A DNA stretch of 64,000 nucleotides from IMG/VR virus record IMGVR_UViG_3300017700_000469, positions 1 to 64,000 of that record. One strand, written 5' to 3'. Of this stretch, positions 46,374 through 63,975 are shown piece by piece. The position numbers and the translations under genes were made by a program. How positions within the stretch are numbered: position 1 is the first letter of the stretch; every line of letters starts with the position of its first letter. The stretch is from a virus (lineage: Duplodnaviria; Heunggongvirae; Uroviricota; Caudoviricetes). Under the pieces are notes generated by a model. The model was not told the DNA's origin. It worked only from the letters and a program-made list of their open reading frames with translations, and did not search any database.

Positions 46374-46407
46374 CCAATCTTACACCAGCTTCGACCTAAG
46401 TCAAACC
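46374..46407 (-). promoter_or_regulatory. Conserved early promoter/operator copy 1 (TTGACT-16-TAAGAT)
   Basis: The - strand reads tttgacttaggtcgaagctggtgtaagattgg. TTTGAC-N4-GTCGAA imperfect palindrome. Confidence 0.5.
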
Positions 46408-46421
46408 AAAATAAATGACGC

Positions 46422-47120
46422 CTAAGCGACACTCTCGTCGTATCGCTTGAGAATCCGCCAAACGGCAACCGAAGTGAACGGCTTACCGGCCGTCGTCTGG
46501 TGATCTTCGTCGTTCAGCTTCTTTGCGATGACGGGTAGAGTGTCACCGGCCGCGTGCCACTCCCTGATCTTCGGAATGAGGAACGAATATGCCGACAGCG
46601 CCCGTTGGCTACGGACGATGGCCGAGTTCTTCGCGCCTTTCTTCCAGCCTCGCTTACCCTCTCGCCCCTTCCAGTGGTCCGGGCGGGCGGAACCGAGCAG
46701 CGTTCCATTCTTCTTAGCAACCGCCAGGGCGTCCTTGGTGCGGCGGCTCGTCATCGTGGCCTCGTTCTCGGCCACGGCCGCGAGGATATGGATCGTGAGA
46801 CGGGTGGCGTGTGGATTGTCACAGCAGACGAAATCGACGCCGCTGTTCATCAGTGCGGCCGTGAACTCCATGTTTCGGGACAGTCGATCGAGCTTGGCGA
46901 CTACGAGCGTGGCCTTGGCCAGCTTTGCATGGGCCAACGCCTTCTGAAGCTCGACGCGATCGGATCGCTTACCGGTCTCGACTTCGATATACTCGGCGAT
47001 GATCTTCCCATCGTTGTGTGCCGAGTAGTCGCCGACCGTCTTCTTCTGTGCGTCCAGACCGAGGCCGGATTGTCCTTGTTTCTTCGTGCTGACTCGGTAG
47101 TACGAGATAAATTTCTTCAT
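46422..47120 (-). CDS. Small serine recombinase (resolvase/invertase family; start refined to MKKFISYYRVSTKKQ)
   Basis: YYRVSTKKQ catalytic Ser motif, LVVAKLDRLSRN, C-terminal HTH-like region. 232 aa. Confidence 0.85.
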   Translation of the reverse strand: MKKFISYYRVSTKKQGQSGLGLDAQKKTVGDYSAHNDGKIIAEYIEVETGKRSDRVELQKALAHAKLAKATLVVAKLDRLSRNMEFTAALMNSGVDFVCCDNPHATRLTIHILAAVAENEATMTSRRTKDALAVAKKNGTLLGSARPDHWKGREGKRGWKKGAKNSAIVRSQRALSAYSFLIPKIREWHAAGDTLPVIAKKLNDEDHQTTAGKPFTSVAVWRILKRYDESVA

Positions 47121-47159
47121 GGAACGTCCGTGGTTCATGCCGCTGTTTCTGTCTACCCA

Positions 47160-47195
47160 TAACATTACATCGGCTTTGTCCGTTTGTCAAATTGT
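47160..47195 (-). promoter_or_regulatory. Recombinase promoter, a diverged member of the conserved promoter family (TTGACA-17-TAATGT)
   Basis: The - strand reads caatttgacaaacggacaaagccgatgtaatgtta, with TTTGAC..GACAAA half-sites. Confidence 0.4.
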
Positions 47196-47337
47196 GCAAA
47201 TGAAATGATTCTGACGACGCCTCGCCCGCAAAAACGGAATAATCGTTCGTGGCGTAAGTTCGTCAGAGTATTTTCTGGATTCGCGTGGTATGCCGCACCA
47301 TTTCATTGGCTTTGACACCCCTAGATGATAGTGTTGA

Positions 47338-47375
47338 ATTGAAGGTCGAACTGAAGGTCGAACAGAAGGTCGAAA
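47338..47375. repeat. Three tandem direct repeats of GAAGGTCGAA(C/A) (11-12 bp period) in a 255-bp AT-richer intergenic region beside the recombinase gene
   Basis: ttgaaggtcgaac tgaaggtcgaac agaaggtcgaaa, followed by aaggagg. Confidence 0.6.
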
Positions 47376-47421
47376 AGGAGGACACATCTATCAACGGGTT
47401 TAGGTATTTTGGACTGACACC

Positions 47422-47862
47422 ATGCGGATTGAAATTGAAAGTGCGATGAAGAAAGCTGCCCGAGAGGGCATCGACAGCTACATCCCCGTCTTCAACGGCG
47501 TAGATTTGGAAGTCGAAGCATGTATCCCAGAAGTATCGTTGCGTAATCTTCGCACGATGCTGAAGACGGGGTTGAAGGTCGCTTCCGTGACCGTCGTCGA
47601 TGACGGTCACATCCTGGTCGCTTTCGCTACCGGTGAGACTTACTTGGCCACTGGCTTCGCAGTCGGCCCAGCCAGCGATCTTACGCTTGGGTTGTCCAAG
47701 TTCATGGCCTCGGCGTTCCCGAAATTGAGCGCCTCGGACTGGGAAGGCGTCATCACAGTCGGGCACGACGAATACTTCCGTGGCGTCATCGATCACCAGT
47801 GTTACATCGACTTGAAGATCAAAGAGACGGCCGGTATCAAGCTATTCGACCACGACGAATAA
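47422..47862 (+). CDS. hypothetical protein
   Basis: 146-aa ORF. Confidence 0.4.
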   Translation: MRIEIESAMKKAAREGIDSYIPVFNGVDLEVEACIPEVSLRNLRTMLKTGLKVASVTVVDDGHILVAFATGETYLATGFAVGPASDLTLGLSKFMASAFPKLSASDWEGVITVGHDEYFRGVIDHQCYIDLKIKETAGIKLFDHDE

Positions 47863-47903
47863 TCTGAAAACCGTTTGGTGTCCGCAGGCGTGATAGACAC
47901 GCC

Positions 47904-48626
47904 ATGCAAGTCACCGCCGACATCGCCGTACCGCCGCTGCTCTCGGGTGAAGCACCGATCGTTGGACAGTGGTACCTCGTGCCTTGTGCCAACGGCATTC
48001 CAGTCATCGGTGAGCCGCACGTTGACGCAGACCACTTCAACAATACACCGTCGCACTATCACTGCGACTCCCGGTTTCACGACCGCGATACTCGGCACGG
48101 GCCTGCCGACTGTGCCGTGCTTTCCGAATACGGTCCCGCCCGGATCGGCCGACTGAGTTCGGACACGGGCGCTGAGATGACCGTCGAACCGAGGCAGTGT
48201 CTACGGGACACGCCCGCTCCGTGGGTAGATGAGCACTTTGCCATCGCCACGATGAGCCTCTATTGCGACTTCGGCTTCGCTAAGTCGAAGTGCGGAGTCT
48301 GCCCACACAAGCGAATGCCGATCCTCAACGGCGTCTGCTCCGGGCACCGCCTTGCTTGGCTGCCGGACGGCGAGATCAAGCATAAGCCGCCGTACACGTT
48401 CCGCATCAGGGGCACCGCCAACGTCCTTGTCATCACCGAGCGGTGCGAACTCGACATCATCAGGATCGAGATCATCGAAGATTGCGTCGCGCCTTACGTC
48501 CTCGACTTCTCAGGGATCGACGGGCAGGTATTGGCTACCCGTACCTTCCCGAATCAACCTTCAATGCAAGTCGGCGATCACTTCAGGGTCGCTTTCTACA
48601 ACCATCAGCAGCCTACCTATGCTTGA
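47904..48626 (+). CDS. Cys/His-rich hypothetical protein (possible metal-binding)
   Basis: CPHKRMPILNGVCSGH and other Cys/His clusters. Confidence 0.4.
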   Translation: MQVTADIAVPPLLSGEAPIVGQWYLVPCANGIPVIGEPHVDADHFNNTPSHYHCDSRFHDRDTRHGPADCAVLSEYGPARIGRLSSDTGAEMTVEPRQCLRDTPAPWVDEHFAIATMSLYCDFGFAKSKCGVCPHKRMPILNGVCSGHRLAWLPDGEIKHKPPYTFRIRGTANVLVITERCELDIIRIEIIEDCVAPYVLDFSGIDGQVLATRTFPNQPSMQVGDHFRVAFYNHQQPTYA

Positions 48627-49206
48627 AAGCCGATACCGACTCACCGGATCGAACGCTCTCCCGCCGCAGTCGCCCATCTATATGCCACCTGCACTTCGCG
48701 GTGTGGTCAGCGGCGGCACCTGGGACGGACCGCCGTCGATCGCCGCACAGCGGCTCGGACTCGAACTCCGCTGGAACCGGTACTTGACGTTGATCGTCGG
48801 CAACCGGGACGGCGAGTTGGAAGTATCCGGCGGTGACGATCCCGATCTCGTCGAACGAATCGATGAGGACCACTACTCGGTCCTCACGCAACACCACGTC
48901 GTGTTCCCGCGAGGCTTCAACGGCCTCGTGCTGCCAGTGCCTCGCTACTACGAGCCGCTCCCGGAGAACGCCTACTGTGACTCACCGGCGATCGTACCGA
49001 TCCTCATCGAGTTCGACCGCGACCCGCTGCCGTTGAAGATCGTGTGCCGTATGCCTCGGAATCGGTGCGAGCAAATTTTCTATTCCGGCGAAGCGTTCTG
49101 CCAGATCGTTCCGACGCCGCGCGGTGACGTCACCGTCCGCTCGATGACCACGGAAGAGAAGGAAGCCGCCGTGGCTAAGGAAAAGGAAGCCAATGCTGCA
49201 CGATAA
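48619..49206 (+). CDS. hypothetical protein (start refined to MLESRYRL)
   Basis: The 5' part of the ORF-track ORF is Ser/Arg low-complexity out-of-frame overlap. An 8-nt overlap joins it to the upstream gene. Confidence 0.35.
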   Translation: MLESRYRLTGSNALPPQSPIYMPPALRGVVSGGTWDGPPSIAAQRLGLELRWNRYLTLIVGNRDGELEVSGGDDPDLVERIDEDHYSVLTQHHVVFPRGFNGLVLPVPRYYEPLPENAYCDSPAIVPILIEFDRDPLPLKIVCRMPRNRCEQIFYSGEAFCQIVPTPRGDVTVRSMTTEEKEAAVAKEKEANAAR

Positions 49207-49744
49207 CGGATTTGAGTACCGAGGTTTCGAGATCGTGCCCGACCCGAACTGGGCAGTTTCGTACAAGCCGTACTTCATCGCCTGCGGACCTGAGTTCGGT
49301 ACGAAGGCCGGATGCCGACCGCGATGGGCTCGCGGCGAGTACACGTCGGACGAAGCTCGACAGTTGATCGACGCTTATCGCGAGTCGCCGGTCGATGGGC
49401 CGGTTCGGGAGACCGTGTCGATCCGCCTCGCAAGGCACTACGTGGAGTGGCTCGATCTCTACCATCTCTCGATGAAGAGCGGGCAGTTCGAGACCGGTTG
49501 CAATGCCAAGCGTCGAGCAGTTTTCTACGCCCAAGAATTGATCCGCCGTAAGAAGCCGCTGCCGAAGCCTCTGACGACCGCGACCGGAGAGCCCTTAGCT
49601 CTCAACCCGCCGCGAGATGACGATGACCGGCCGAGCGGGGCCAACCGTCCACGTCGCCGACGTCGCGCCTATTCCGTCGTGGATGAGCTAAACGCCAAGT
49701 TCTCCGTGTATCGACGTGCCAAGCATCGCGAAGACGCCTGTTAG
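49193..49744 (+). CDS. hypothetical protein with an Arg-rich C-terminus
   Basis: C-terminal run RPRRRRRAY. 183-aa ORF. Confidence 0.35.
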   Translation: MLHDNGFEYRGFEIVPDPNWAVSYKPYFIACGPEFGTKAGCRPRWARGEYTSDEARQLIDAYRESPVDGPVRETVSIRLARHYVEWLDLYHLSMKSGQFETGCNAKRRAVFYAQELIRRKKPLPKPLTTATGEPLALNPPRDDDDRPSGANRPRRRRRAYSVVDELNAKFSVYRRAKHREDAC

Positions 49745-49893
49745 CGATCATCACCCAGGTTTGAACATGCCTCACGACGTCATCGCGATTATGGCCAGAC
49801 AACTGATGCTCAACATAGAGCGTCGGTTGGCTGCACAGATTGCCTCATCACCATTCACTGGCTTGCCCCATGCGAACGTCGAATCGACGCACA

Positions 49894-50214
49894 ATGCAAC
49901 GCTCCAAATGGCGACCCAAGCGAAAATTGGGTATCGCCGGTCGCATCAACGCCCTTTCGTGGCTGAGTACGATTCGACTCTGGCTCTTCGTGGCATCCGC
50001 GTGGGCCGTGGTTATTACTGCCCTTACTAGCGGCTGGGAGTACGAGCTTGTAGACGGCCGCGAAATGCGTGCCTGGAACATCAAGCTCCCAGGTTGGAAG
50101 CACTACGTCGATCTGACGACGGACCCGCCGCAGGTCCGCACCTACTTCTCGCTTCGCTCGCCTTATCGAGTGAGCCCGTACATCGAACCGGAATGGGCAA
50201 ATGAAACCCCTTAG
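49894..50214 (+). CDS. membrane protein (hypothetical)
   Basis: High GC3 from ~49890 onward. TM LWLFVASAWAVVITALT. Confidence 0.3.
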   Translation: MQRSKWRPKRKLGIAGRINALSWLSTIRLWLFVASAWAVVITALTSGWEYELVDGREMRAWNIKLPGWKHYVDLTTDPPQVRTYFSLRSPYRVSPYIEPEWANETP

Positions 50215-50578
50215 CATCGGCCAGCTTGTTCGCGTGCGGAAGTTCGCCGAAGTCGGTTACTACGACGGCCTGGAAAAGAAACTGGCGACGTTCGACGTCG
50301 AGCCCTTCTTAGCACTGATCGTCGGTCAGACCGTGAAGCGGCTCGGCACCTACCATTCAGGCTCTCGCGGCGACGGTTGGAGCGGTGACTACGAAGAGGC
50401 GTCGCTGTCCATCAGCGGCTCCGTCACGCTCTGGCTTGTCCGGGCGGGAATGGTCAACAAGCCGCTCTGCATCCGCGATGAGGACATTGAACCGGTCCCG
50501 AGCGAGTCGAGCGAGTTCAAACTGCCGTGGCGAGCGGCAAAGCCTCGGCGGATCAAGACGGCAACGGAACCGGCATAG
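50201..50578 (+). CDS. hypothetical protein
   Basis: 125-aa ORF. Confidence 0.35.
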   Translation: MKPLSIGQLVRVRKFAEVGYYDGLEKKLATFDVEPFLALIVGQTVKRLGTYHSGSRGDGWSGDYEEASLSISGSVTLWLVRAGMVNKPLCIRDEDIEPVPSESSEFKLPWRAAKPRRIKTATEPA

Positions 50579-50998
50579 GTGCGCATGGCCTCTGAACGCA
50601 GAGCGGGCCGTGACGTTAAATAGCCAAGACACCAGCATCGTCTGCGGCGATGCGATCATCACGAAGATGTGACGGACAGCAGCCTATGCGACGCAAAGAG
50701 ATCGCGGCGAAGACAATCACGCAGAGTAATGACGCCTCGTGCCATAGTCCTCGGGCGAACGGGCACAAGGCTCGTGCATCCCTCAAGAGGACGAGCAGTA
50801 AGAAGCTGCGGCAGGCCGTGGCCAAGGACACGGCCGAGCAGGTCGCCGACGCCGACCCGTTGAAGCCGGGGCTCGGCCTGTTGGTCAAACTTGGTTCGAT
50901 CGCGGTCCATGTGGACGAAATGCTTTCACCCGGCGGCCATGAGGCCGACCGGATCGCGATCAATCAGCTTCTCAACGATGAAGACGTCAAAGCCTGGG

Positions 50999-51604
50999 TC
51001 ATCGCGCTGACGCGATCTGGGATGCTTCCTGTGAAGCGATGAACTGACCCATCGCGGCTCCCACCAGCCCGCCTATCGTGCGGGCACCGAGCTTATCCTT
51101 TAGTTTCTTGATCTTCGAGTCGATGGCGCTCTCGGACAAGAACATCTTTTCTGCGATCTCTCGCAGCGTGTGGTCGGCGCAGAGCAACGACAACAGAATC
51201 TTGTCGTCGGTCGTGATCTCGGCATAGATGGCCGGCAGTCGCGAGCTTATGCACACGAACGACAGGCCGGGTATCAGGGCGGCGACCGCACCGACCTTGA
51301 ACGTGTCGGCGGGGATCAGCGTCACACGCCAGAGCACGTCCGGCATGTTCGGACCGAAGCTCGTGTTGACCACGTAGCCCACGATCTGACCCCGCATCAC
51401 GCAGTCGTCGATGGCGGCGTTCTGTGTGGCGTGATCGTCTCCGACCCAGAACTCGCGAAAGCACCGACCGACCCAGCCACGCTCGTTGCAAGGGTCGCTG
51501 CTCGCCCAAAGTATGCGAGCGTGCGCGTCGTGGAGGCTCACTACTAAGTTGCTAAGATTGTGCTTTTCATCGTCTGAGCCCGGTTCTTTCAGCGGCGTTT
51601 TCAT
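50999..51604 (-). CDS. LuxR-family transcriptional regulator (C-terminal HTH) with an N-terminal putative ligand-binding domain
   Basis: DDKILLSLLCADHTLREIAEKMFLSESAIDSKIKKLKDKLGARTIGGLV is a LuxR/FixJ-type HTH. ~160-aa N-terminal domain with a WASSDP...W pattern. Confidence 0.65.
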   Translation of the reverse strand: MKTPLKEPGSDDEKHNLSNLVVSLHDAHARILWASSDPCNERGWVGRCFREFWVGDDHATQNAAIDDCVMRGQIVGYVVNTSFGPNMPDVLWRVTLIPADTFKVGAVAALIPGLSFVCISSRLPAIYAEITTDDKILLSLLCADHTLREIAEKMFLSESAIDSKIKKLKDKLGARTIGGLVGAAMGQFIASQEASQIASAR

Positions 51605-51683
51605 GGTTTTCCCGGTTGGACTCAGTAGGAAAAATAACGGAGAGTTGATTACGGCAATGACAGCTTCAAAACGGGAGTTTCCG

Positions 51684-51884
51684 ATGATCGTCCGCACAGA
51701 ACTCATTACTCTTCACGCAGTCGATCTGCTCGAACTACTGGGAACACCCGGCGACGGCCAAGGCTCGCTGTCGTTGATGACCGATGGTGAAGAGCAAATT
51801 GAAATCGATCTCGATGCGTTGTGTCTTGTCGTGAAGTTGGAACTCGCCAACGATGCGCCGCCAAGCTACATCTTGCCGATGTGA
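51684..51884 (+). CDS. small acidic protein divergent from the LuxR gene
   Basis: RBS GGGAG 6 nt upstream of the ATG. 66 aa. Confidence 0.3.
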   Translation: MIVRTELITLHAVDLLELLGTPGDGQGSLSLMTDGEEQIEIDLDALCLVVKLELANDAPPSYILPM

Positions 51885-51885
51885 T

Positions 51886-52359
51886 TCAAACTCCCGACGA
51901 CTTTAGGACGGCCTCCAACGGCTCAAGTGATTCGTGGCTTGCGCCGAGCCTTCGCAGCGCATCCACAGCTATCGTGAGACTGTCACGTAGCTTTCGGTTC
52001 ACCGGCGGTGCTGAGCAATCCATGTGGCTCAGACCGCTGTCTGGAAACAGCCGGCACAGCTTGTCAACGAAGTGCTCTTCGTCAACAATGACCGTTCCGA
52101 GAATCTTGTCGGCGTCCGGTACCCCGCAACATGGTACCGATTCCACATACATCACGATCGGGACGAGCTTATCGGCAGGTTCACCGATGTGCATTCTAGA
52201 TACGCACACCGCGATGGATACGCCGGTCGTACTGTCACGACCGCGAAGTGTGACCGGATTCTCTGAGCCCGAGGCCGGAGGCATGTGTCCCTCTGATTGG
52301 TAGATAGCGGACGCTCTCGATAACGGGATCGACATTAGCCTAAGTTTCGGCCAGCCCAT
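51886..52359 (-). CDS. hypothetical protein
   Basis: 157-aa ORF. Confidence 0.3.
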   Translation of the reverse strand: MGWPKLRLMSIPLSRASAIYQSEGHMPPASGSENPVTLRGRDSTTGVSIAVCVSRMHIGEPADKLVPIVMYVESVPCCGVPDADKILGTVIVDEEHFVDKLCRLFPDSGLSHMDCSAPPVNRKLRDSLTIAVDALRRLGASHESLEPLEAVLKSSGV

Positions 52360-52670
52360 AATGAATTTGGGCTAGTTTGGCGTAAGTCCGCAACGCCAAT
52401 CTCTACTATGCCAATCTGTCGTGCTACTGCTCGCCTATGCTTTTGTGGCGAAGCGGTGCTCTTGCAATATGCGTGCCGAGCGCACAAACCGTATGGCCTC
52501 GATCGTGAGGCAGAGTGTTCCCACTAGCCAAGGGCTGAACCCTGGGAACAAGATGCGGTAGCTGCAAAGAATCAAGCAGTTGGCAATGATGAACGGCATG
52601 GGCTATCTCTGAGGAATGGTCGATACTTCAACCATAGCTCACAAACGGCAACCGTCAAAGCTGCTGATAT

Positions 52671-52979
52671 TCAAAACCAGCGGAGTCCGGTCCGAGGCGG
52701 GTCCGCGACCGCCGGCGTCGTGTCGGCCTCGTCGGCTTCGAGCAAGGCCCGCAGGCCGCGACTGCCAACCATGAAGAGGCGGCGGCATCTCAGACAGTCC
52801 TCATTGCAGCTAGGCCATCCCTGCCACTGCCACGGACCGGAGACTTTGAAGGTCAGACGCCCGCAGAGCGAGCGGACCGTTTGGAAACCATCGCCGGCCG
52901 ACTCCACGAAGTAGAAGCAATGGAGTCGGTCGCTTTTCGTCGAGCCCATCCATCCCCACGGCTTAGGCGGCTCGGTCAT
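52671..52979 (-). CDS. hypothetical Cys-containing small protein
   Basis: CFYF..C...CNEDCLRC. Confidence 0.35.
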   Translation of the reverse strand: MTEPPKPWGWMGSTKSDRLHCFYFVESAGDGFQTVRSLCGRLTFKVSGPWQWQGWPSCNEDCLRCRRLFMVGSRGLRALLEADEADTTPAVADPPRTGLRWF

Positions 52980-53275
52980 TTCTTAGGCCAAGGTCGAGTC
53001 ATCTTGAAGCGGGTATCCCGCAAAACTTCTTGGATCGGTTTGGCTTCCATGCTCGCGAGCTTCTCGTCGAGCGTGTCGGACGTTGACTTTCCCCACCGCT
53101 TGCGTCGGTAGGCACGAAGTTGCTTGATGAACTGCTCCGTTTCGGCGATCAGTTCGTCATCCCCGCCGCCTCTGCACGGCTCCATAGCGGCTAGGAACCC
53201 GACACGATCCTGCTCGGCGTAGTTGCACGCCCTTCTCAGCAGTTCGTCTACGCTCAGATTCTTTGGCTTGGGCAT
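52976..53275 (-). CDS. hypothetical protein
   Basis: 99-aa ORF. Confidence 0.4.
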   Translation of the reverse strand: MPKPKNLSVDELLRRACNYAEQDRVGFLAAMEPCRGGGDDELIAETEQFIKQLRAYRRKRWGKSTSDTLDEKLASMEAKPIQEVLRDTRFKMTRPWPKK

Positions 53276-53476
53276 CTCTCAGTAGCTCCACGCTTCGTTT
53301 CGTAATATACCACGAGACGCCCGACATTGGGATCGACGACTGACGGCCACCGTGGGCGGTCCAGTGTTCGATGATCTCGGCGTGGCCGTTCTCCAAGACG
53401 AGCAACTCCGCGCCTGAGTCGATCATCTTGAGAGCTTCACGCCAACTCGTTCGGCGGATCGGGATCGGCTTTCTCA

Positions 53477-54042: not shown

Positions 54043-54247
54043 TTGTTCCTCGTGATCGTGTAGGCGTTGCCGCCGTGGTGAACCGTCATCGATTCACCTG
54101 GCGTAAGCGGGTTCCAGCCCGCCAGGGCCGCCATGATGTCCGGGAAGTGCGGTTGCATTGCGTGCGGCGGCCAGCGGCTCAAGATTCGCTCGATGGTGGT
54201 TCGCACGACAACCGGGTCGGTGTCTCGCGGGCAATCGGTGATGTGGA

Positions 54248-56147: not shown

Positions 56148-56180
56148 GGCGGCGTTCCTGAGTTGTGTTGCAGTGCCCTA

Positions 56181-56218
56181 CAACTCAAGATTACACCAGC
56201 TTTGAGCAAAGTCAAAGC
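56181..56218 (-). promoter_or_regulatory. Conserved early promoter/operator copy 2 (TTGACT-16-TAATCT)
   Basis: The - strand reads ctttgactttgctcaaagctggtgtaatcttgagttgtag. Confidence 0.5.
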
Positions 56219-56228
56219 ATTTTGTAGA

Positions 56229-56627
56229 TTATGCGACTTTGTCCGTGAGAACCTTAATGACTTGCAGGTGCCGACTGCCGCTACATTCGGAACCGTCGAA
56301 CAGGCGAACGGCGTGCGTGTCGGATGTCTTTCGGAACAGATACGAGCCTTTGCGGAAGCCGCCATGCCCGCTGTCGTCGCCGTCGCTAGGGAAACCGATG
56401 TAGTGATCGCCGATCATCAGGTCCGTGAAGACGAGCGGCTGGCTTTGTGCATGGCGGGCTCGCCGGTCCTTGGCTTGGAACCGCTCGAACGGCCGCACCA
56501 TGACGCCCTCTAAGTCCGACTCAGGGCCGTGGCTAGCGACGAACTTGTTCATCTTCGGCGTCAACATGCAGGAGAGTCCTTGGATCGGTGCGACGCCGCC
56601 GTTCGGTAGTTCAATGAAGTGAGGCAT
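56229..56627 (-). CDS. hypothetical protein
   Basis: 132-aa ORF. Confidence 0.35.
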   Translation of the reverse strand: MPHFIELPNGGVAPIQGLSCMLTPKMNKFVASHGPESDLEGVMVRPFERFQAKDRRARHAQSQPLVFTDLMIGDHYIGFPSDGDDSGHGGFRKGSYLFRKTSDTHAVRLFDGSECSGSRHLQVIKVLTDKVA

Positions 56628-56886: not shown

Positions 56887-57098
56887 AGAACGGTCTCGGG
56901 ATCGGTGAGGAACTCCCAGGCTTGCGCAACCGCCCAGTCCTTCTGGCCTGCGAAGACCGCATAGCGTTGGAACGGGTTGATCGTGTGCAGGCTGTAGGCT
57001 TGCTCGAATCCCTCGAACGCCTCGACACCCTGGCGGATTTCGAGATCGTCACGCAGGTAGTAGCCGTGCCGGTTGAGTTCAGCTTCGTCAAGGATCAT
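56883..57098 (-). CDS. hypothetical protein
   Basis: 71-aa ORF. Confidence 0.35.
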   Translation of the reverse strand: MILDEAELNRHGYYLRDDLEIRQGVEAFEGFEQAYSLHTINPFQRYAVFAGQKDWAVAQAWEFLTDPETVL

Positions 57099-57101
57099 CG
57101 G

Positions 57102-57416
57102 TCAGTCTTGGGATGAGAGGTAGTCGTTGTAGGCCGCACCACACGCGAGGCAGCCGCATTTCCCACTACATGAATCCCAGCAGCCAGATAGGCAGGTGCA
57201 AGGCTCACCGTCGTAGAGCCCGTCCGGCGGGTATAGCCGAAGGCCGAACTCGGTGGGTTGTGGCTTCGGATCGGGCGGCTCAGGTGTGGGCGGTACATAG
57301 TCCGCGACGAGCTTCAGCAGTTCGTCACGCTCGGTACCGGCGGTGCGAGCGATCTGTTGGGCGCGGTGGACGTGGTTCGTGAGTAGGCACGCTTCGACTT
57401 GTTTTCTGGCGTTCAT
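57102..57416 (-). CDS. Cys-rich small protein (start refined to MNARKQVEA)
   Basis: CTCLSGCWDSCSGKCGCLACG. ATGA overlap with the upstream gene. Confidence 0.4.
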   Translation of the reverse strand: MNARKQVEACLLTNHVHRAQQIARTAGTERDELLKLVADYVPPTPEPPDPKPQPTEFGLRLYPPDGLYDGEPCTCLSGCWDSCSGKCGCLACGAAYNDYLSSQD

Positions 57417-58648
57417 TCCCACCGCCGTCCCTTCAAGGGCTTGGTGAACATCGGGCGGATCGGAAGTTCCTGCCGAGCGACCCAGTCCTTGACACGCTGG
57501 CTGGACGTCGAGGACGTGGGCGGCGTCTCTTCGATCACCGCGAGCTTGGCGTCTTCGAGCGGCGGTACGTGAATCATGGTGATCCGCGAGTCGCCTGGAA
57601 TGATCGGGCACGCATCCTTATCGCTTGCGCACTGGATGAAGTGCGTAGTGGCCGGCGGATCGATCTTCGTGATCTTGCCGTCTCGCTTCGCGCGACCGAG
57701 AGCCTGTTCCCAACTTGCAGCGGTGTAGTTCTGCGGCGTGCCCATGCCGAGCGTGCAGATTCGGCACTCGACCACCGATTCGTCTTCCTCGAACGTGAAT
57801 CCCGGCCGACCCGTGACCGGATGCTCGATGATTCCCTTCACGGTGGCCCATTTGAAACGTGATTTGAACGGCTTCGCACTGATCTTTCGTACCTTTTGGC
57901 CGATCCACGACGTCCAGATCGCGACGGTACGCTCTTCCCAAGGCTCTGGGCGTTCCTTCGGAGCGGGTTTCGTCGGCGAGCCATACATGGCCGCGAAGAC
58001 GCCGAGATGTGTCGCCGTGTATGGCTTGCCGGCGTACTTAGCCGCCAAGTCCTTCAAGCTCGGTCCACGCCTCTCTTCAAGCTCTTCGATCATCTTGATC
58101 TGGTGATTCCACAGCCTCGTTTCAAGCGGCTTGTAGTCGGGCATCGGCGGCCCATAGAAGTTGTTGTCGCACCGCCAACGAATCCAAGCCATGTCGTCGG
58201 CGTGACGAGCACGTACTTGGACGTCGGTTGGAGCATCTTTGAAGCTCGGACCGAAGATTTTGACGACCGGAAGGCCCGATTCCATGAGTTTGGCGAGGTT
58301 TTCGGCGTCCGGGACCGCCTCGGTGCCCTGATTCTTGAGCAATTCGCTGACTTGAGCGAGCAACGCCGCCTGTTCTTCGGCCGTGGGAGCTACGCAGATG
58401 ACCATCATCGCGCCGGTGACGATGACTTGCGGTTCGAGCGGCCTCGACTTGAGAACCTCGGCCTCTTCCAACGCCGTCATCTTCGGATAGCTGTACGGCG
58501 ACATCGTCTCGAAGTCATACGCCATCTTCCCATCGGGCAGACGAACTGCGGCGACGTTGAGCCGAACCGGAGGCTTGTCCAAATTTTCCACGCCGTCAAT
58601 GTCGCTCATAAGGTGTTTCAATGCGTCTAAGGGCTTCGGATCGGTCAC
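57413..58648 (-). CDS. 411-aa hypothetical protein, first gene behind promoter copy 3 (GTG start or a leaderless mRNA possible)
   Basis: No family recognised. The first codon is GTG, 3 nt after the promoter element. Confidence 0.45.
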   Translation of the reverse strand: MTDPKPLDALKHLMSDIDGVENLDKPPVRLNVAAVRLPDGKMAYDFETMSPYSYPKMTALEEAEVLKSRPLEPQVIVTGAMMVICVAPTAEEQAALLAQVSELLKNQGTEAVPDAENLAKLMESGLPVVKIFGPSFKDAPTDVQVRARHADDMAWIRWRCDNNFYGPPMPDYKPLETRLWNHQIKMIEELEERRGPSLKDLAAKYAGKPYTATHLGVFAAMYGSPTKPAPKERPEPWEERTVAIWTSWIGQKVRKISAKPFKSRFKWATVKGIIEHPVTGRPGFTFEEDESVVECRICTLGMGTPQNYTAASWEQALGRAKRDGKITKIDPPATTHFIQCASDKDACPIIPGDSRITMIHVPPLEDAKLAVIEETPPTSSTSSQRVKDWVARQELPIRPMFTKPLKGRRWE

Positions 58649-58686
58649 AATTCAAGATTACGTCAGCTTCGACCGATGTCAAACGA
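58648..58686 (-). promoter_or_regulatory. Conserved early promoter/operator copy 3 (TTGACA-16-TAATCT)
   Basis: The - strand reads cgtttgacatcggtcgaagctgacgtaatcttgaattg. Confidence 0.5.
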
Positions 58687-58689
58687 GAA

Positions 58690-59763
58690 TTACAGACTGC
58701 CGAACACTTCTTTGCACGATCCCTGCCCGTTCATCATGCAAAACACGCATTCGCAAGGCGTGGTCGGGCTCTCAACGCCCGTGAACTCGACGTTGAGGCG
58801 ACGCCACATCTCCAACCGGTTGACTCGCTGCTCGGCTTCACGCTTCTTCTGTGCGGCCTTGGCCTCGGCGTCAGCTTCGGCCCGCGTCTTGAAGCCGAGC
58901 TTGACCAACTCGTCTAGGTCGAGATCGGTGCCGATGTTCAGGTACGGGTCGCCGTCATCGAGATCGGCCACGACTCGCAGCACGGAGTCATCGTCGAACT
59001 GGATCAGGAACGATCGCCAAGCGGATTCAACGCGCTTGACCGTCTTACCGACCGTCTCTTCGAGATCAATGGTCTTGTTGCTCGGTCTGGCCTTAGGCAC
59101 CACGCGAGTCCGGTCGGGCCGGGCCATCTCGGCGTCCTCGGGATTCGCAGCGAAGCTCATGGCGGCGATATTCGCCAGCGACACGCCGTGCGATGTCGCA
59201 TGAGCGCGGGCCGCAGCCTCGGACGGATGGTAGAACGGCGAGGCTGCATCGATCCACACCCCGTCTTCGAGCAGGCATTCGATGTGATCGCCGACGATGC
59301 GGCCGATCCAGAAGCCCTCGGCATCGCGACTGATGGTGATCTGCGGGTGCTCTTCATCCACGACGGGTGGGCGGAAGTACAAAGTGCAGGCTGACGGCAA
59401 CACGGCACCGATGTTGCCCGGACCGAGCACGTCAAGGTCGGGCCGCTTCTCAGTCGGGTACATCTTGAAGCGGACGCCGGCCGTGACGTCGATCACTTCT
59501 CGACGGTGAGGCGGGTCGATACCGTCGATGACCACGATGTCGCCGGCCTGCGGCAACTCGCCGCTCGCGTACCGGTTGTGATCGCGGCCGGTGAGCGAGC
59601 ACCAACGGGCGCTGAAGCCTGCGGGCTCGCCGTTGAGTTCGACGGTGACTTCGTCGCCGTTACCGCTGTGCCAAATGACAGTGACGTCCTCGATCTTCTC
59701 TTCGTTGCGGACTTGGACGTCGATCGTGTCGCCGATGTGCGGGTGTTCGCCGGTCTTATACAT
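58690..59763 (-). CDS. Hypothetical protein with two YxTGE.P..GD.I modules (paralog of the next gene)
   Basis: MYKTGEHPHIGDTIDV and YASGELPQAGDIVVIDG. Confidence 0.45.
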   Translation of the reverse strand: MYKTGEHPHIGDTIDVQVRNEEKIEDVTVIWHSGNGDEVTVELNGEPAGFSARWCSLTGRDHNRYASGELPQAGDIVVIDGIDPPHRREVIDVTAGVRFKMYPTEKRPDLDVLGPGNIGAVLPSACTLYFRPPVVDEEHPQITISRDAEGFWIGRIVGDHIECLLEDGVWIDAASPFYHPSEAAARAHATSHGVSLANIAAMSFAANPEDAEMARPDRTRVVPKARPSNKTIDLEETVGKTVKRVESAWRSFLIQFDDDSVLRVVADLDDGDPYLNIGTDLDLDELVKLGFKTRAEADAEAKAAQKKREAEQRVNRLEMWRRLNVEFTGVESPTTPCECVFCMMNGQGSCKEVFGSL

Positions 59764-59772
59764 GGTGTCTCG

Positions 59773-60573
59773 TTATGAAGGGATGTGAGTCTTGGCGCGT
59801 TTGAGTGCGAACGGTTGGATGGCCGAGCACGGCATCCGCAAAGCGAAGACGATGGCTTCGTCACGCTTACCCTCACGGATCAGACGATCGATGGTGAGGA
59901 ATGTTTTGATTTCGAGGCAGCTATTGGCCAGCCTGATCGCCTTCGCGGCATCGGCCAGCACGACGGACTCATAGAGGTAGTCGAACGGGATCACTGCGTG
60001 TCCCATAGCGAAGGCGGTGATCTCTTCGCGAGTCGGCAGGTAGTGCCGCTTGGTCTTGATCTTTGACCACGTCCCGTCCGTCTCTAAGCCCCACTCGTAG
60101 TCGTTGTCCTTCGAGACGTAGAATCCCTCGCCGGTCCAGAGGATGTTGATCGGCGTGAACGGCATGTTGTTCGAGACCTGCCGAACCGGTGGATTGCCCG
60201 GCCCGCGCTCGATGAGCGTGCAGCGACTTGAGTTGACCGGATACTTGCCGTGGCTGTGCCTGTACCAAACGATGTGGCCGCTGACTTTGAAGACCGTGAC
60301 GTGCGATCCGCTCTCACCGACCATGATGACGTCGCCGACGCACGGCAGTTCACCACTGGCGTAGACTCGCGGACGCTTCACGAGGAAACATCGCGACGGC
60401 TTCTCCGTCTTGAGATGCTCGCCGAGCTTGAACCCTGGTCGGAACTGCACAAGTCCTTCGGCGACGATGGCCGACACCCTTCGTCGTTGGGTGTCAGTCC
60501 CTTCGGTGAGGATGTCGATGATGTCGCCGACCATCGGCGCTTCGCCAGTCTTGTACAAGAGAGTCATAGTCAA
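59773..60573 (-). CDS. Hypothetical protein with two YxTGE.P..GD.I modules (paralog of the previous gene)
   Basis: LYKTGEAPMVGDIIDIL and YASGELPCVGDVIMVGESG. Confidence 0.45.
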   Translation of the reverse strand: MTMTLLYKTGEAPMVGDIIDILTEGTDTQRRRVSAIVAEGLVQFRPGFKLGEHLKTEKPSRCFLVKRPRVYASGELPCVGDVIMVGESGSHVTVFKVSGHIVWYRHSHGKYPVNSSRCTLIERGPGNPPVRQVSNNMPFTPINILWTGEGFYVSKDNDYEWGLETDGTWSKIKTKRHYLPTREEITAFAMGHAVIPFDYLYESVVLADAAKAIRLANSCLEIKTFLTIDRLIREGKRDEAIVFALRMPCSAIQPFALKRAKTHIPS

Positions 60574-60592
60574 AATTATTGAGGCGTGAATG

Positions 60593-61024
60593 TTACGAGG
60601 CGATCAGGTGTCTCCACCGTTCCACGAACTTGCGGATGACGGTGATCTCTTTCTTGGAATAGACGCCCTCGACGCTGTCTTGGCCCTCTTCGATCAGGTC
60701 AAGCTCGGTGAGCACGGCCCAGACCACGTCTTCCGGCGTCTTAGCGTCGTCGGCCGCATCGCACGGCAGCGGCAACTCCATCTTGAGGTAGTCGGCGGTC
60801 GGCTTCGCCTTCTTACCCTTCGCGAGCTTCTCTTCGGGCGGTGCGTTCAGCGCTGCTCTCGCGGCCGAGCACGACGGGCAGCGGCATCCGGCCTTGGTGA
60901 GCCAGTCCTTGCCCGCCTTGGTGTCGGCGGCCTTGTGCTTCGCGGCTGTTGCCTTGAACCAGGGATCAGCCGCCGGCGGCACGGTCGGCTTCGCGGGCTT
61001 CTTTGGCTTGGGCGTCCGAGGCAT
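60593..61024 (-). CDS. Lys/Pro-rich hypothetical protein with a CRCPSC motif
   Basis: 143-aa ORF. Confidence 0.35.
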   Translation of the reverse strand: MPRTPKPKKPAKPTVPPAADPWFKATAAKHKAADTKAGKDWLTKAGCRCPSCSAARAALNAPPEEKLAKGKKAKPTADYLKMELPLPCDAADDAKTPEDVVWAVLTELDLIEEGQDSVEGVYSKKEITVIRKFVERWRHLIAS

Positions 61025-61186
61025 TGACGTACTCCGAGATGAGGCAGACGATCGAGGCGGTAGTGGCGACGGCGAAGGCGATGATGCCGAGCAGCGTGAA
61101 CATGCCGTTGACGCCGCAGATGTCGTAGACGAACTTGAGGATGCCGATGACGACGACGGTGAGCCAAGCAGCGGCGAGGTAGGTCT

Positions 61187-61351
61187 TCATTTGGTCTCAG
61201 TTGGTTTAACGAAGAGTTGGATCAAGACGAGGGCCAGGACGAGCAGGATCATTACGACTGCGGCACCGGTGAACCCGACCGACCAATACTGCACCGACAG
61301 CAGCGAGCCGCAGGCGACGATCAGTGCGGTGATGGCAAGGTTTTCCTGCAT
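61187..61351 (-). CDS. 54-aa double-TM mini membrane protein
   Basis: MQENLAITALIVACGSLLSVQYWSVGFTGAAVVMILLVLALVLIQLF. The 301-aa ORF-track call 61187..62092 is an Arg-rich out-of-frame artefact. Confidence 0.35.
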   Translation of the reverse strand: MQENLAITALIVACGSLLSVQYWSVGFTGAAVVMILLVLALVLIQLFVKPTETK

Positions 61352-62019
61352 CAGAAGTTCTCTTTCATCCAGGCTTCGCTCGGGCTCTTGACGGCGACGC
61401 CGTCCTTGACCACGTCCGAGAAGCGGCTGGGAAATTGGTTGAAGTAGGTGGTCGAGCCCTTCGAGTGGTTGTAGCGGCAGTTCACGATGATGCTCATGCT
61501 CAACGCGAAGCTGAGCCCTTCCTTGAGCTTCACGGAGATCAGACCCGTGATCGGGTTGCTGAGCGTGAGGCTCCCGCCGACAGCAGGCTTGGCTCGCGGG
61601 TGTTTGGCACAGGCGTTGTCGAGCTTCTTCGACTGCTTGATGATAAAGTGCGACTTGGCACTCGCGACGACGTCCAGAGCGTTCTTCTCGGCGAGGGCAT
61701 AGTCGATCGTGTGCGTGAGCTTCGTGATCTGCTCCCACCACTGCGCGTTGTCTTGGCCGGATGTGCGGAAGTCTTCGGGGTCTTTCTTGAGCTTGACGTA
61801 CTGGCCGGGCAGTGCCTTGCGACGGAGTTCGTCCTTGGCACGCCAGTTGAGCTTCGATTCGTCCGGCCACGGCTCGGTCTTCTTCGTCTCCCAGAACTTT
61901 CCTTGGCGTTCGGCGAGCCCTCGGAAGTCCGCGATCATGCGTTCCTTGAAGGCGGGCTCGATCTGCTCGAACATGGCCTTCAGGATCGACTCGAACGTCT
62001 TGATGCGGGTGGCGGACAT
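61351..62019 (-). CDS. 222-aa hypothetical protein (start refined to MSATRIKTF, RBS GGAG)
   Basis: First gene behind promoter copy 4. Confidence 0.45.
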   Translation of the reverse strand: MSATRIKTFESILKAMFEQIEPAFKERMIADFRGLAERQGKFWETKKTEPWPDESKLNWRAKDELRRKALPGQYVKLKKDPEDFRTSGQDNAQWWEQITKLTHTIDYALAEKNALDVVASAKSHFIIKQSKKLDNACAKHPRAKPAVGGSLTLSNPITGLISVKLKEGLSFALSMSIIVNCRYNHSKGSTTYFNQFPSRFSDVVKDGVAVKSPSEAWMKENF

Positions 62020-62042
62020 CGTCGTGCTCCGTGTTGTTTGGT

Positions 62043-62085
62043 GACAACTCAATCTTACACCAGCTTTGACGTCTGTCAAACCAAA
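62043..62085 (-). promoter_or_regulatory. Conserved early promoter/operator copy 4 (TTGACA-16-TAAGAT; perfect TTTGAC-agac-GTCAAA palindrome)
   Basis: The - strand reads ggtttgacagacgtcaaagctggtgtaagattgagttgtcacc. Confidence 0.55.
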
Positions 62086-62432
62086 ATATCAACGACCTGA
62101 ACGGGAATCCCTGCGGCCGTGGCCACGCTGACCATGTCGGCGGTGCCTCGGTTGCCAGGAAACGCTACGCAACGGTCCGGTTTGTCCTTCAGCATCGCTC
62201 GGTTGCGGATCAATCCCGCCCACGGCGTGCCGTATCTCTTCCAATTCGCAGGCCGACCGAGGCGTTCGATGCCTCGCGACTCAGCCCAGGCGTCGCACAG
62301 ACTGTCTGCGCCCTCGGCTCCACCGTGGATCAGCACGGCGATGCCCTCGTCCTCGTGTATGTGGTCGAGTACCCGAGCCACCGTCTCGGCGTCGGCGTAC
62401 TTTCGACCGCCGGTGACGAGAAGACGGATCAC
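62076..62432 (-). CDS. DUF2493-like SLOG-superfamily protein (Rossmann-like, DprA/LOG-related)
   Basis: LLVTGGRKY...VLIHGGAEGAD pattern. Confidence 0.45.
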   Translation of the reverse strand: MIRLLVTGGRKYADAETVARVLDHIHEDEGIAVLIHGGAEGADSLCDAWAESRGIERLGRPANWKRYGTPWAGLIRNRAMLKDKPDRCVAFPGNRGTADMVSVATAAGIPVQVVDILV

Positions 62433-62680
62433 AGCGTCTCGGCGGGTTCGGGGTTCTCACGCATGAAACGACGCTCAAGGCCGGCGGTCTGCCGCTCGAT
62501 GGCACGCACCTTTCGCCATCGGCGATCGACTTCGTAGTGTTCGAGCCTGCTCTGGTGGGCTTCGACGACGGCTTTACGAGCTTCAGTCTCGGCGAGGTAC
62601 GAGGCTTCGATCTGAGCGAGCGTGACGGGCTCGCGGATCAGGCCGAGCAGCTTGGCGATTCGGATCAGGATGTTCTTCAT
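62429..62680 (-). CDS. hypothetical helical protein
   Basis: 83-aa ORF. Confidence 0.35.
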   Translation of the reverse strand: MKNILIRIAKLLGLIREPVTLAQIEASYLAETEARKAVVEAHQSRLEHYEVDRRWRKVRAIERQTAGLERRFMRENPEPAETL

Positions 62681-62681
62681 G

Positions 62682-62879
62682 TTATGTGTCCTTGGAAGGT
62701 TGGAGAACGCACAGGGCAGCGGCAGTGAGCCCGATCGGCAGCACGAAGGTCAGAAGCGTGTACCCTACGGCCCTCGGCTCATAGTAAATCGCCATGCAGG
62801 CACCGCCGAGCAGGATGGCACCGCCGGCGATAGCCACGAACACGAGCCAGATGCGTGAGAGGATGCGGATGAACTTCAT
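62682..62879 (-). CDS. small double-TM membrane protein
   Basis: IWLVFVAIAGGAILLGGACMAIYY and LLTFVLPIGLTAAALCVL. Confidence 0.4.
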   Translation of the reverse strand: MKFIRILSRIWLVFVAIAGGAILLGGACMAIYYEPRAVGYTLLTFVLPIGLTAAALCVLQPSKDT

Positions 62880-62881
62880 GT

Positions 62882-63280
62882 CTACTTCCAGTCCGGGTAG
62901 AAGATGCCGCCGTTGCCGAACTCGTTGATGATCTCGATCGCCGCCACTCGCGGCAGTGCGCCCACGGCGTGAACGATCTCGGAAGGCATCGGCTTGACGG
63001 CGAGCTTCTGAATCGTCGCTTGGATTTCGGCGTCGGCACCCATTTGGAAGCCCGGCTCTTCACGCCAGACGCGAATGGTCCAGTTGCCGAGCTTCACCTT
63101 CGTCATCGTCTCGAAGACAGGGTTCTTCGGAACCGGTGTGCAGTCGAGCACGTCGGCCCACTGCTCGCGGCCACCCGGAGTCCTGAAGAGGACGCCCTGG
63201 GCGACGTCTCGCTCGACGACTTCGCAGCCGTACCATGTGTCGTCGCCTACTCGGACGCTGATCTTGTCGCCTCGCTTCAT
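62882..63280 (-). CDS. hypothetical protein
   Basis: 132-aa ORF. Confidence 0.4.
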   Translation of the reverse strand: MKRGDKISVRVGDDTWYGCEVVERDVAQGVLFRTPGGREQWADVLDCTPVPKNPVFETMTKVKLGNWTIRVWREEPGFQMGADAEIQATIQKLAVKPMPSEIVHAVGALPRVAAIEIINEFGNGGIFYPDWK

Positions 63281-63288
63281 GGTGTCTC

Positions 63289-63501
63289 TCAGTTGGGTAC
63301 GGGCATGTGGCCGACAGCATCACTGACCGTCTCGCGGGCCTTACGCAGCCCGAGGATCAATACGTCGATCTGGCCGTCCGGCGTCGGAGCTTCACGTTGC
63401 AGCTTCTTTGCAGCCGCGATGACGTCGGCGAGTTCGTTCATGCAACCGAAGAGGTTGGCACGAGCTTGTGCGATCTGAGCGGGTAGGTTCATCGTGCTCA
63501 C
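63289..63501 (-). CDS. hypothetical small protein
   Basis: 70 aa. Confidence 0.35.
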   Translation of the reverse strand: MSTMNLPAQIAQARANLFGCMNELADVIAAAKKLQREAPTPDGQIDVLILGLRKARETVSDAVGHMPVPN

Positions 63502-63707
63502 GAGATGGCGGTGACGGCTTTGACGGTGTGCTGCTTGGCTTCGGTGATCTTGTCGATCAGGCGGATCACGGCGTGCTCATCGGTATCCGGGCAGGTCTCG
63601 AAGACAGTGTGCTCGGCGTGGTGGGCGAGATCGGTGAGTTCGAGCGAGAGGCTGAGCATCGCCTTGCGGACGGCCTCGACTCGCAGTTCGACGTCTTGAA
63701 TGGTCAT
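63498..63707 (-). CDS. hypothetical small protein
   Basis: 69 aa, coupled to the upstream gene. Confidence 0.35.
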   Translation of the reverse strand: MTIQDVELRVEAVRKAMLSLSLELTDLAHHAEHTVFETCPDTDEHAVIRLIDKITEAKQHTVKAVTAIS

Positions 63708-63913
63708 GCTGTCTCCGTGGTGAAGCGTTCGAGAGCCTTGACGGCAACGGCGACACCAACACGAGCGTCCTCGGCATGGATGCAGTCATCGCTCGATTCA
63801 TCGCCATCGATCTCGCTGTCGAGGCGGTCGGCGATGACGTCGAGCTTGCCTTTGATGGTGAGAAGCTCGACGTGCAGGACGTTGAGTTCGAGGCGGGTGT
63901 CTTCAGTGGCCAT
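63704..63913 (-). CDS. hypothetical small acidic protein, first gene behind promoter copy 5
   Basis: 69 aa. Confidence 0.35.
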   Translation of the reverse strand: MATEDTRLELNVLHVELLTIKGKLDVIADRLDSEIDGDESSDDCIHAEDARVGVAVAVKALERFTTETA

Positions 63914-63931
63914 GATGTGCTCGTGCTAGGT

Positions 63932-63975
63932 GACAACTCAATCTTACACCAGCTTTGACCAGTGTCAAACTGTGC
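63932..63975 (-). promoter_or_regulatory. Conserved early promoter/operator copy 5 (TTGACA-16-TAAGAT)
   Basis: The - strand reads agtttgacactggtcaaagctggtgtaagattgagttgtcacc. Confidence 0.55.

Follow-up and report, generated by a model that had tools for sequence, protein, structure and literature searches.

A conserved family of probable sigma-70-type promoters with a constrained spacer in an uncultured clade of tailed phages

Promoter copies and the genes behind them

The stretch of DNA considered here (64,000 nucleotides, positions 1 to 64,000 of IMG/VR record IMGVR_UViG_3300017700_000469, hereafter the window) belongs to a tailed phage and encodes a tape-measure protein, a P22-like coat protein, a GpA-type large terminase, and a DUF5906 primase/helicase-like protein; it has two tRNA genes and a G+C content of ~60%. 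Between 46 and 64 kb, the window carries five copies of a promoter-like block of the form TTTGAC-N4-GTCRAAGCTGGTG-TAA(GA/TC)T, and our subject is this repeated block, its counterparts in related phages, and the reading of it as a family of promoters under shared control.

From the right-hand edge of the window inward, the first copy (c63; 63933-63969, - strand) has a TTGACA -35 element at 63968-63963, a TAAGAT -10 element at 63946-63941, and a predicted start (+1) at ~63934, and it heads seven small genes of 65 to 132 amino acids (aa) (63913 down to 62076). The second (c62; 62044-62080, -), with its -35 at 62079-62074, its -10 at 62057-62052, and a predicted +1 at ~62045, heads a 222-aa gene (61351-62019) and then genes of 54, 74, 143, 264, and 357 aa. 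Behind c58 (58647-58683, -; -10 TAATCT at 58660-58655) lies a 398-aa gene (57413-58609) followed by small genes, and behind c56 (56180-56216, -; -10 TAATCT at 56193-56188) lie 46-aa and 196-aa genes and then a run of small genes; at c56, TGAGTTGT on the 3' side of the -10 pairs with ACAACTCA in the leader. The fifth copy (c46; 46369-46405, -; -35 TTGACT at 46404-46399, -10 TAAGAT at 46382-46377) heads the gene for a RecT-like protein (45074-46336, -; phrog_2319), which in Tunturiibacter phage Tunturi_5 is annotated as RecT-like. A small serine recombinase of the resolvase/invertase type (46422-47120, -) lies behind a further copy (c47; 47154-47191, -), in which TTGACA (47190-47185) and TAATGT (47167-47162) are separated by a 17-nucleotide (nt) spacer and the palindrome is broken by one extra base. 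The initial annotation had described c47 as a diverged sixth copy; it is indeed a real relative, kept in five genomes, and is better regarded as a distinct subtype with a 17-nt spacer. A seventh, diverged member (47311-47339, +; TTTGAC-ACCC-...-TTGAAT, 16-nt spacing) faces a + strand gene cluster beginning at 47446, and its divergent counterpart in the related contig L117 lies at 6802 on the - strand.

The five canonical copies were found with the pattern TTTGACN4GTCRAAGCTGGTGTAAKMTTGAGTTGT at three or fewer mismatches. All five matches (zero to three mismatches) are on the - strand and fall within 1 to 6 bases of where five near-identical copies had initially been placed, and 100 shuffled controls gave no match. 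A looser pattern also picks up c47. When a position weight matrix (PWM) built from 14 copies was scored on the window and on 20 shuffled windows, the five copies reached 41 to 47 bits, followed by the + strand member at 47311 (14.8 bits) and c47 (13.9 bits), both of which lie within the divergent region around the recombinase gene; the best shuffled score was 13.3 bits. A sigma-70 consensus scan of 44 to 64 kb ranks c63, c62, and c46 highest (TTGACA or TTGACT, a 16-nt spacer, and TAAGAT); the -35, -10, and 16-bp spacer assignments made initially hold. On a codon-usage gene map, every copy occupies an intergenic gap of 56 to 85 bp and lies 27 to 45 nt before the ATG of a co-oriented gene, in agreement with the earlier description of the copies as directly upstream of - strand genes.

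Family scans left most of the proteins behind the copies without a family assignment, and the 398-aa protein behind c58 has no full-length homolog among 5.8 billion proteins. By PWM scan, the structural module (6 to 35 kb) contains no family member; its intergenic regions carry ordinary terminators consisting of a hairpin and a T run. A blastn search of GenBank phages with the motif gave chance matches only, and a scan of a viral contig collection with the pattern TTTGACNNNNNNNRAAGCTGRYGTAA gave a single unrelated match (L033). The phage genome is at least 130 kb and larger than the window: a 94.6-kb Logan contig extends past the left edge of the window (position 1) by 66 kb, and the RecT-like protein is also recorded on a 136.5-kb Joint Genome Institute (JGI) contig. 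The sequence read for this work was the window plus 9 kb to its left; c63 sits at the window edge, and further promoter copies probably lie beyond it.

Two of the copies, c62 and c63, share an identical 31-nt run (62044-62074 and 63933-63963) that extends past the conserved core. A shared run of this length interrupts assemblies of the phage made at k = 31, and the Logan assembly (k = 31) of the source sample breaks here, with a separate contig of 1,918 bp covering the interval from one copy to the other. The Logan assembly also breaks within a gene, at a (CCGCCA)n repeat (28529-28557).

At the end of the gene preceding c56 (~56224-56247, -), ACGGACAAAGTCGCATAATCT resembles the spacer and -10 of the recombinase subtype, ACGGACAAAGCCGATGTAATGT, but lacks a -35. 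The sequence could be what is left of a promoter, or else a weak promoter in tandem, and it explains one CTTTGTCC match of the initial annotation. The CTTTGTC(C/G) motif that had been thought to recur is a chance occurrence, with 4 matches versus 5.06 expected in the window; the match at 47174-47181 is c47 read on the other strand.

Conservation of the block across relatives

Many homologs of the RecT-like protein exist, and five of the contigs or phages that carry them are syntenic with the window (L116, L028, L117, L032, and L034), keeping the order of a PAS-LuxR regulator, an inverted gene cluster, the resolvase, and then RecT. RecT identity to the window is 79% for L116, 64% for L028, 62% for L117, and 58% for L032; L034 was retrieved through the regulator search and not through RecT. 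These relatives are partial metagenomic contigs (3.5 kb for L116 and 17.6 kb for L117). A more distant relative, L004, is an IMG/VR contig of 117 kb with a terminase 69% identical and a recombinase 60% identical to those of the window. A RecT profile search returned 80 loci, every one of which is at most 45% identical, and among these, related promoter-like repeats were seen only in L037 and L039/L040; single-protein locus searches of IMG/VR with the early proteins returned nothing useful. The clade is uncultured and without a cultured relative: a megablast search of GenBank phages with 44 to 64 kb gave no match, and the terminase has only ~24% identity to those of SPO1-like phages. Two RecT homologs (39 to 41% identity) are labeled as Planctomycetota metagenome-assembled genomes, a weak clue to the host.

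The block is kept in all five relatives. Canonical copies stand upstream of RecT in L116, L028, L032, and L117, the recombinase subtype stands upstream of the resolvase in the same four contigs, and L034 and L117 contain four and three canonical copies, respectively. Across the six genomes (the window and its five relatives), canonical, recombinase-subtype, and divergent copies are all upstream of, and co-oriented with, a transcription unit. The consensus of the 15 canonical copies in these genomes is TTTGAC-N4-GTCAAAGCTGGTG-TAAGAT; only N4 and positions 4 and 5 of the -10 (where GA, TC, TG, AT, AG, and GG occur) carry little information, and information falls off after the -10. Positions 4 and 5 are those that matter least in sigma-70 -10 elements, and T-12, A-11, and T-7 are retained.

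Among orthologous copies, block identity is 84 to 100% (N4 excluded) versus 66 to 82% nucleotide identity for RecT. The 222-aa gene behind c62 is only ~55% identical in nucleotides and ~33% in protein to its orthologs in L034 and L117, and these too lie directly behind a promoter copy, such that c62 corresponds to L034-456 and L117-563. As the block has diverged more slowly than the genes behind it, we take the copies to be old, orthologous, and under purifying selection rather than the outcome of recent spread, and the initial remark that conservation extends well beyond the hexamers is borne out across the clade.

All window copies have TTGACA or TTGACT as the -35 and TAAGAT, TAATCT, or TAATGT as the -10, which are hexamers of the sigma-70 kind, and the spacer (16 bp in canonical copies and 17 bp in the recombinase subtype) lies within the 16 to 18 bp expected of sigma-70 promoters. 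The 25 nt on the 5' side of the -35 are 48 to 64% A+T in the window copies versus ~40% for the genome. Judged from these sequence features, the repeats are very probably a lineage-conserved family of promoters for the housekeeping (sigma-70-type) polymerase. Such a family is a familiar kind of element in a new, uncultured clade, useful and not surprising in kind. Its usefulness lies in the promoter model TTTGAC-N4-GTCAAAGCTGGTG-TAAnnT, with a predicted start ~7 nt downstream, which would define the transcription units of the clade.

Start site and leaderless genes

Four copies in relatives have an ATG exactly 6 nt past the -10. Three are in L034, at 456 (TAAGAT-AGATAC-ATG), 6765 (TAAGAT-TGCTGT-ATG), and 8452 (TATGGT-TCTAGT-ATG), and one is in L117, at 563 (TAGGAT-ATTGGT-ATG). 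Three of these four ATGs are gene starts called in the database; the remaining one is in frame and precedes the called start by 15 nt. An ATG in this position implies the geometry of a leaderless mRNA, in which the A of the ATG would be +1; this geometry fixes the register of the -10 and places the predicted start 7 nt downstream. The start ~7 nt past the -10 that the initial annotation had proposed thereby gains comparative support. A reading of the block as an extended -10 promoter was rejected: the TG at -14/-13 abuts the hexamer, and with the register shifted, -11 would be a T in relatives (TATAGT becoming ATAGTT).

The 222-aa gene is leadered in the window, where GGAG precedes its ATG behind c62, and leaderless in L034 and L117. 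Phages of this clade thus alternate between leadered and leaderless forms of one and the same gene. Shine-Dalgarno sequences are weak throughout the window (any 4-mer of the GGAGG core in 36 of 92 genes, many with only GAG[A]), and this weakness, together with the leaderless starts in relatives, is a weak clue to the host.

The recombinase-RecT locus

The RecT promoter is set apart by a long inverted repeat (46349-46393, -), the 5' arm of which is the promoter spacer plus the -10 and the 3' arm of which lies in the 5' untranslated region. This long hairpin is specific to the RecT promoter and folds in all five orthologs (z-scores of -3.4 to -6.2), which in the relatives lie at ~1525-1572 in L116, ~9546-9600 in L028, ~9941-9992 in L032, and ~7723-7775 in L117; the inner-stem sequences differ among the orthologs, and no T run follows. 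The hairpin contains the predicted start, so its formation would require either single-stranded DNA or a transcript that reads through from the recombinase gene.

Just downstream of the + strand member, the intergenic region contains a 12-bp tandem repeat of 3.2 copies (GAAGGTCGAAC-like; 47336-47374, +), which no other tandem repeat in the window outscores. The right-arm variant seen in c46 and c58, GGTCGAA, is present in every unit; GGTCGAA by itself is not enriched in the window (17 matches versus 16 expected). A possible reading of the repeat is as a regulator-binding array.

The dyad and the constrained spacer

Within the block, the dyad TTTGAC-N4-GTCAAA spans -35 to -20 and overlaps the region of polymerase contact, and its left arm is the -35 itself. 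Of the 15 copies, 8 have a perfect dyad and the other 7 a dyad with one mismatch; outside the five window copies, the window holds only two 2-mismatch matches, which is the chance level. The idea that the dyad makes the block a bidirectional promoter was discarded, as a passable opposite-strand -10 is present only at c63, where nothing is encoded on that side.

What, then, reads the spacer? RNA polymerase does not normally read -25 to -13. The 13 bases in this interval are as conserved as the hexamers, which argues for a second sequence-specific reader, and so strongly constrained a spacer would mark a specific protein-DNA interaction that controls at least seven units at once. Based on the sequence, an embedded repressor site shared by the copies is plausible: chance is unlikely to place an exact 6-mer complement of the -35 at a distance of four bases from it, and N4 is free to vary, as it is between the half-sites of a dimer. 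Also in favor of an operator, the recombinase promoter of L004 (3597-3630) reads CCATTGAC-TACT-GTCAATGG-TGAGT-TAATAT, with a perfect 8+8 dyad over the -35 in a spacer that, the dyad apart, is unlike that of the window, and L037 has TTGAC-TTCT-GTCAA.

We posit a mechanism in which the host RNA polymerase holoenzyme would read TTGAC(A/T) as the -35 and TAAnnT as the -10 across a spacer of 16 bp (17 bp in the recombinase subtype), would begin transcription ~7 nt past the -10, and would from each promoter drive one leftward unit, be it a block of small genes (mostly of unknown function), the recombinase, or the RecT-like operon. The invariant spacer GTCAAAGCTGGTG (-25 to -13) would be read by a second sequence-specific factor, most likely a DNA-binding protein of the phage. 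Placed between the -35 and the -10 and in part on the TTTGAC-N4-GTCAAA dyad, this protein would switch all of the units together; its position suggests a repressor. The genes served would be early genes, as the initial annotation had supposed. We regard a protein bound between the hexamers, which by its position would repress, as the best explanation of the spacer, with belief and doubt nearly in balance. The full explanation, in which sigma-70-type promoters are joined to a spacer-reading phage protein that switches the units together, is the one that we favor, with measured confidence.

Several observations weigh against this explanation or against parts of it. The right-arm changes in the close family (GTCGAA, CTCAAA, TTCAAA, GTCAAT, and GTCTAA, in 7 of the 15 copies) are single and are never compensated in the left arm. 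GCTGGTG, which lies outside the dyad, is conserved as strongly as the right arm. In addition, L029, L030, and L118, in which RecT is 59 to 60% identical, have an aligned repeat family, TTTGCAT-N3-GTCAA-N5-GA(T/A)GTA-N3-TTGAAGTAG (at 11566, 15300, and upstream of 10001 in L029; at 16251 and upstream of 10001 in L030; and upstream of 10001 in L118), which keeps GTCAA and G-N2-G-TA without the palindrome, so part of the spacer conservation would be a lineage-wide promoter feature and not a property of the dyad. Because L029 and L030/L031 encode sigma factors of the extracytoplasmic function (ECF) type (Sigma70_r2/r4_2) a few kilobases upstream of these promoters, a phage-modified polymerase is possible. 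The term "sigma-70-type" itself reflects a match to consensus. Finally, L117 keeps the motif, yet neither at the syntenic position nor elsewhere in the 17.6 kb of this contig is there a gene for the candidate regulator described below. Hence, of the initial proposal of an operator for a dedicated repressor, the overlap of the dyad with the -35 stands, whereas the repressor role is not established, given the uncompensated right-arm changes and a spacer that is conserved throughout. L030 also encodes a tyrosine integrase.

A candidate regulator

The protein that might bind the dyad is encoded at 50999-51604 (-) and combines an N-terminal PAS-like domain with a C-terminal helix-turn-helix (HTH) of the LuxR/GerE type. 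With its start set at 51604, it has 201 aa, and its orthologs have 185 to 190 aa. The C terminus gives a weak match to GerE/LuxR-type HTH domains; among solved structures, its best relatives are DosR and GerE. An AlphaFold2 (AF2) model built from only three sequences, with a mean predicted local distance difference test (pLDDT) score of 64, shows the N-terminal half as a PAS-like five-stranded sheet. Foldseek searches with this model return VqmA first (including the VqmA of vibriophage VP882), then EL222 and LuxR-type receptors, with E values of ~1e-6, a global template modeling (TM) score of ~0.3, and sequence identities of 14 to 17%. A homolog search with the protein found only two.

The regulator is present in the window, L028, L032, L034, and L035, and it occurs together with the motif in four of the six motif-bearing genomes; the other two are the partial contigs L116 (3.5 kb) and L117. 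Its own upstream region contains no member of the promoter family. A 66-aa gene (51684-51884, +), conserved in L028, diverges from the regulator gene ~80 bp away, and the pair resembles a module of a sensor and a small effector.

Based on the model and its fold relatives, the PAS-LuxR-HTH protein is a predicted binder of the family dyad, as a candidate only. The initial annotation had named this LuxR-like protein among the regulators that might bind; a PAS protein with a LuxR HTH of the dimer type is a reasonable candidate, but one that is missing from the 17.6 kb of L117, which has the motif. We speculate that the protein could bind the dyad in every family promoter and so gate the whole host-polymerase-dependent program of a ~136-kb phage, a long shot by our own estimate. 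If this were true, one regulator that senses a small molecule or other signal would do across the genome what the VqmA(Phage)-qtip switch does at a single promoter.

Alternative explanations

Could the conserved spacer be a recognition element for a modified polymerase rather than an operator? Under such a scheme, the copies would be middle-type phage promoters, read either by host core polymerase with a phage sigma factor or by a sigma-70 that a phage factor has directed to new sites, as in the MotA/AsiA system of T4. Conservation over the entire spacer is what one would expect, the TTTGCAT-type relatives combine an aligned family with Sigma70_r2/r4_2 proteins a few kilobases upstream, and the window protein read as 50999-51706 has a weak PHROG "sigma factor" match over its HTH. 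The hexamers, however, are of the near-consensus housekeeping type and not of the ECF type, no sigma domain was found among the window proteins scanned, and the N terminus of the 201-aa protein is a PAS-like beta-sheet and not sigma region 2. Moreover, the promoters head the very first small-gene blocks, which would need a polymerase present at infection, and we consider a phage-directed polymerase unlikely. Less probable still is a scheme in which nucleic acid structure, instead of a protein, constrains the spacer; the spacer would then form part of a composite terminator or processing site that acts on read-through transcripts and overlaps the following promoter. The RecT-promoter hairpin, with its 5' arm in the spacer and -10, is present in five of five orthologs with differing inner stems, and smaller hairpins of a like kind occur at c56 and L117-2598; c62, c63, and the leaderless copies nevertheless keep the spacer without a comparable partner sequence, the hairpins lack a T run in a phage that uses canonical terminators elsewhere, and the covariation term on the alignment is weak.

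Other alternatives concern how the copies spread and recombine. In addition to promoter activity, the repeats and their stem-loops might serve as dispersed homology for the shuffling of small genes, in the manner of the promoter early stem-loop (PeSL) cassettes of T4-type phages, and of all the alternatives we find this one the least doubtful, if still doubtful. It would accommodate the 31-nt identity of c62 and c63 past the conserved core, the stem-loops that overlap the -10 at c46 and c56, the RecT-like annealing protein that the phage encodes, and the poor conservation of the genes between the copies, which have few matches in relatives and include the 398-aa protein without a full-length homolog. 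It sits less well with copies that are orthologous and vertically kept with their genes (c62 with L034-456 and L117-563; c46 in five genomes), with stem-loops that are neither G/C-tract hairpins nor followed by T runs, and with the finding that no indel between relatives, which are partial contigs, mapped to a pair of copies. A dispersed repeat that contains a dyad and has a resolvase/invertase gene between two of its copies might also recall a mobile element of the miniature inverted-repeat transposable element (MITE) type or res/hix-like sites for the adjacent serine recombinase. Crossover sites of serine recombinases are ~12-2-12 dyads, with inverted half-sites of ~12 bp around a 2-bp crossover, whereas the geometry here is 6-4-6, the dyad is disrupted in c47, the recombinase's own promoter, and if five direct repeats acted as res sites, the region would be lost. 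As for mobility, all copies are intergenic and in a single orientation relative to the downstream gene, terminal inverted repeats and target duplications are lacking, similarity stops within ~40 bp, and the copies are orthologous across genomes. On orientation, position, extent of similarity, orthology, and site geometry, both ideas were set aside as scarcely credible, and the initial description of the copies as promoter linked and not as a MITE-like dispersed repeat is upheld.

Other features of the window

Some further features of the window and its surroundings lie apart from the promoter family. A 16-bp direct repeat of 1.9 copies (AAGGCTTTGTCGCGGC; 387-417, +), unrelated to the family, lies upstream of the gene at 509-1024 and of the primase/helicase-like gene. 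Two leaders in the structural module (~13233-13262 and ~22003-22045, -) share an element resembling CATT(A/C)CTC(C/T)ACTCCA(TT)CGGAGAC, in one case ahead of the gene at 12654-13232 and in the other ahead of that for the coat protein; this leader element may be a late-gene promoter or a translation signal. Some ~0.1 to 0.8 kb to the left of window position 1, a protein with ParB_N and HTH_ParB domains is encoded (L010, 8197-9141), and no recognizable ParA adjoins the ParB gene. A ParB together with a small resolvase could hint at a plasmid-prophage lifestyle.

Comparison with known systems

The PeSL cassettes of T4-type phages have been described (PMC2839356, PMC4122927). Like T4-type early promoters and PeSL cassettes, the window family consists of many near-identical sigma-70-like promoters that are richer in A+T upstream and conserved past the hexamers; they precede small genes of unknown function in a variable region, and some have a stem-loop at or next to the -10. 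The lineage is different, having a P22-like coat and a GpA-type terminase rather than those of a T4-like myovirus. In the PeSL type, every element has in or beside it a stable stem-loop that serves as a terminator, and gene gains and losses bounded by the elements, as well as mini-circles, are further hallmarks. The stem-loop here stands out at c46 and c56, is weak at c58 and c62 and absent at c63, and has no T run. The window family also has a dyad over the -35.

P1 C1 operators and the conserved inverted repeats of phiC31 are dispersed repressor sites of temperate phages. So are the stoperators of Cluster A mycobacteriophages (PMC9283540, PMC6550527). In common with stoperators, the window family places one short site, conserved among relatives, at many units of one genome, such that control by a single protein is possible. 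Stoperators, however, are asymmetric sites of 13 to 14 bp that lie mostly inside transcription units and stop elongation, while the window site is a candidate dyad inside each promoter. Its repressor is putative, and lysogeny is not established for this phage.

VqmA proteins are dimers with PAS and HTH domains that bind palindromes (PMC8284805). Like VqmA, the VqmA of phage VP882, and EL222 (PDB 7dwm, 6ide, and 8a5r), the window regulator is in its AF2 model a two-domain protein with a PAS/LOV-type domain and an HTH, and, as in VqmA systems, a small gene (51684-51884) diverges beside it. VqmA-type proteins differ from what we propose in that they activate one or two promoters and do not repress many. 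The window promoter family, in sum, belongs neither to the T4-type early promoters and PeSL cassettes nor to the dispersed repressor sites of the stoperator type, and it shares features with both.

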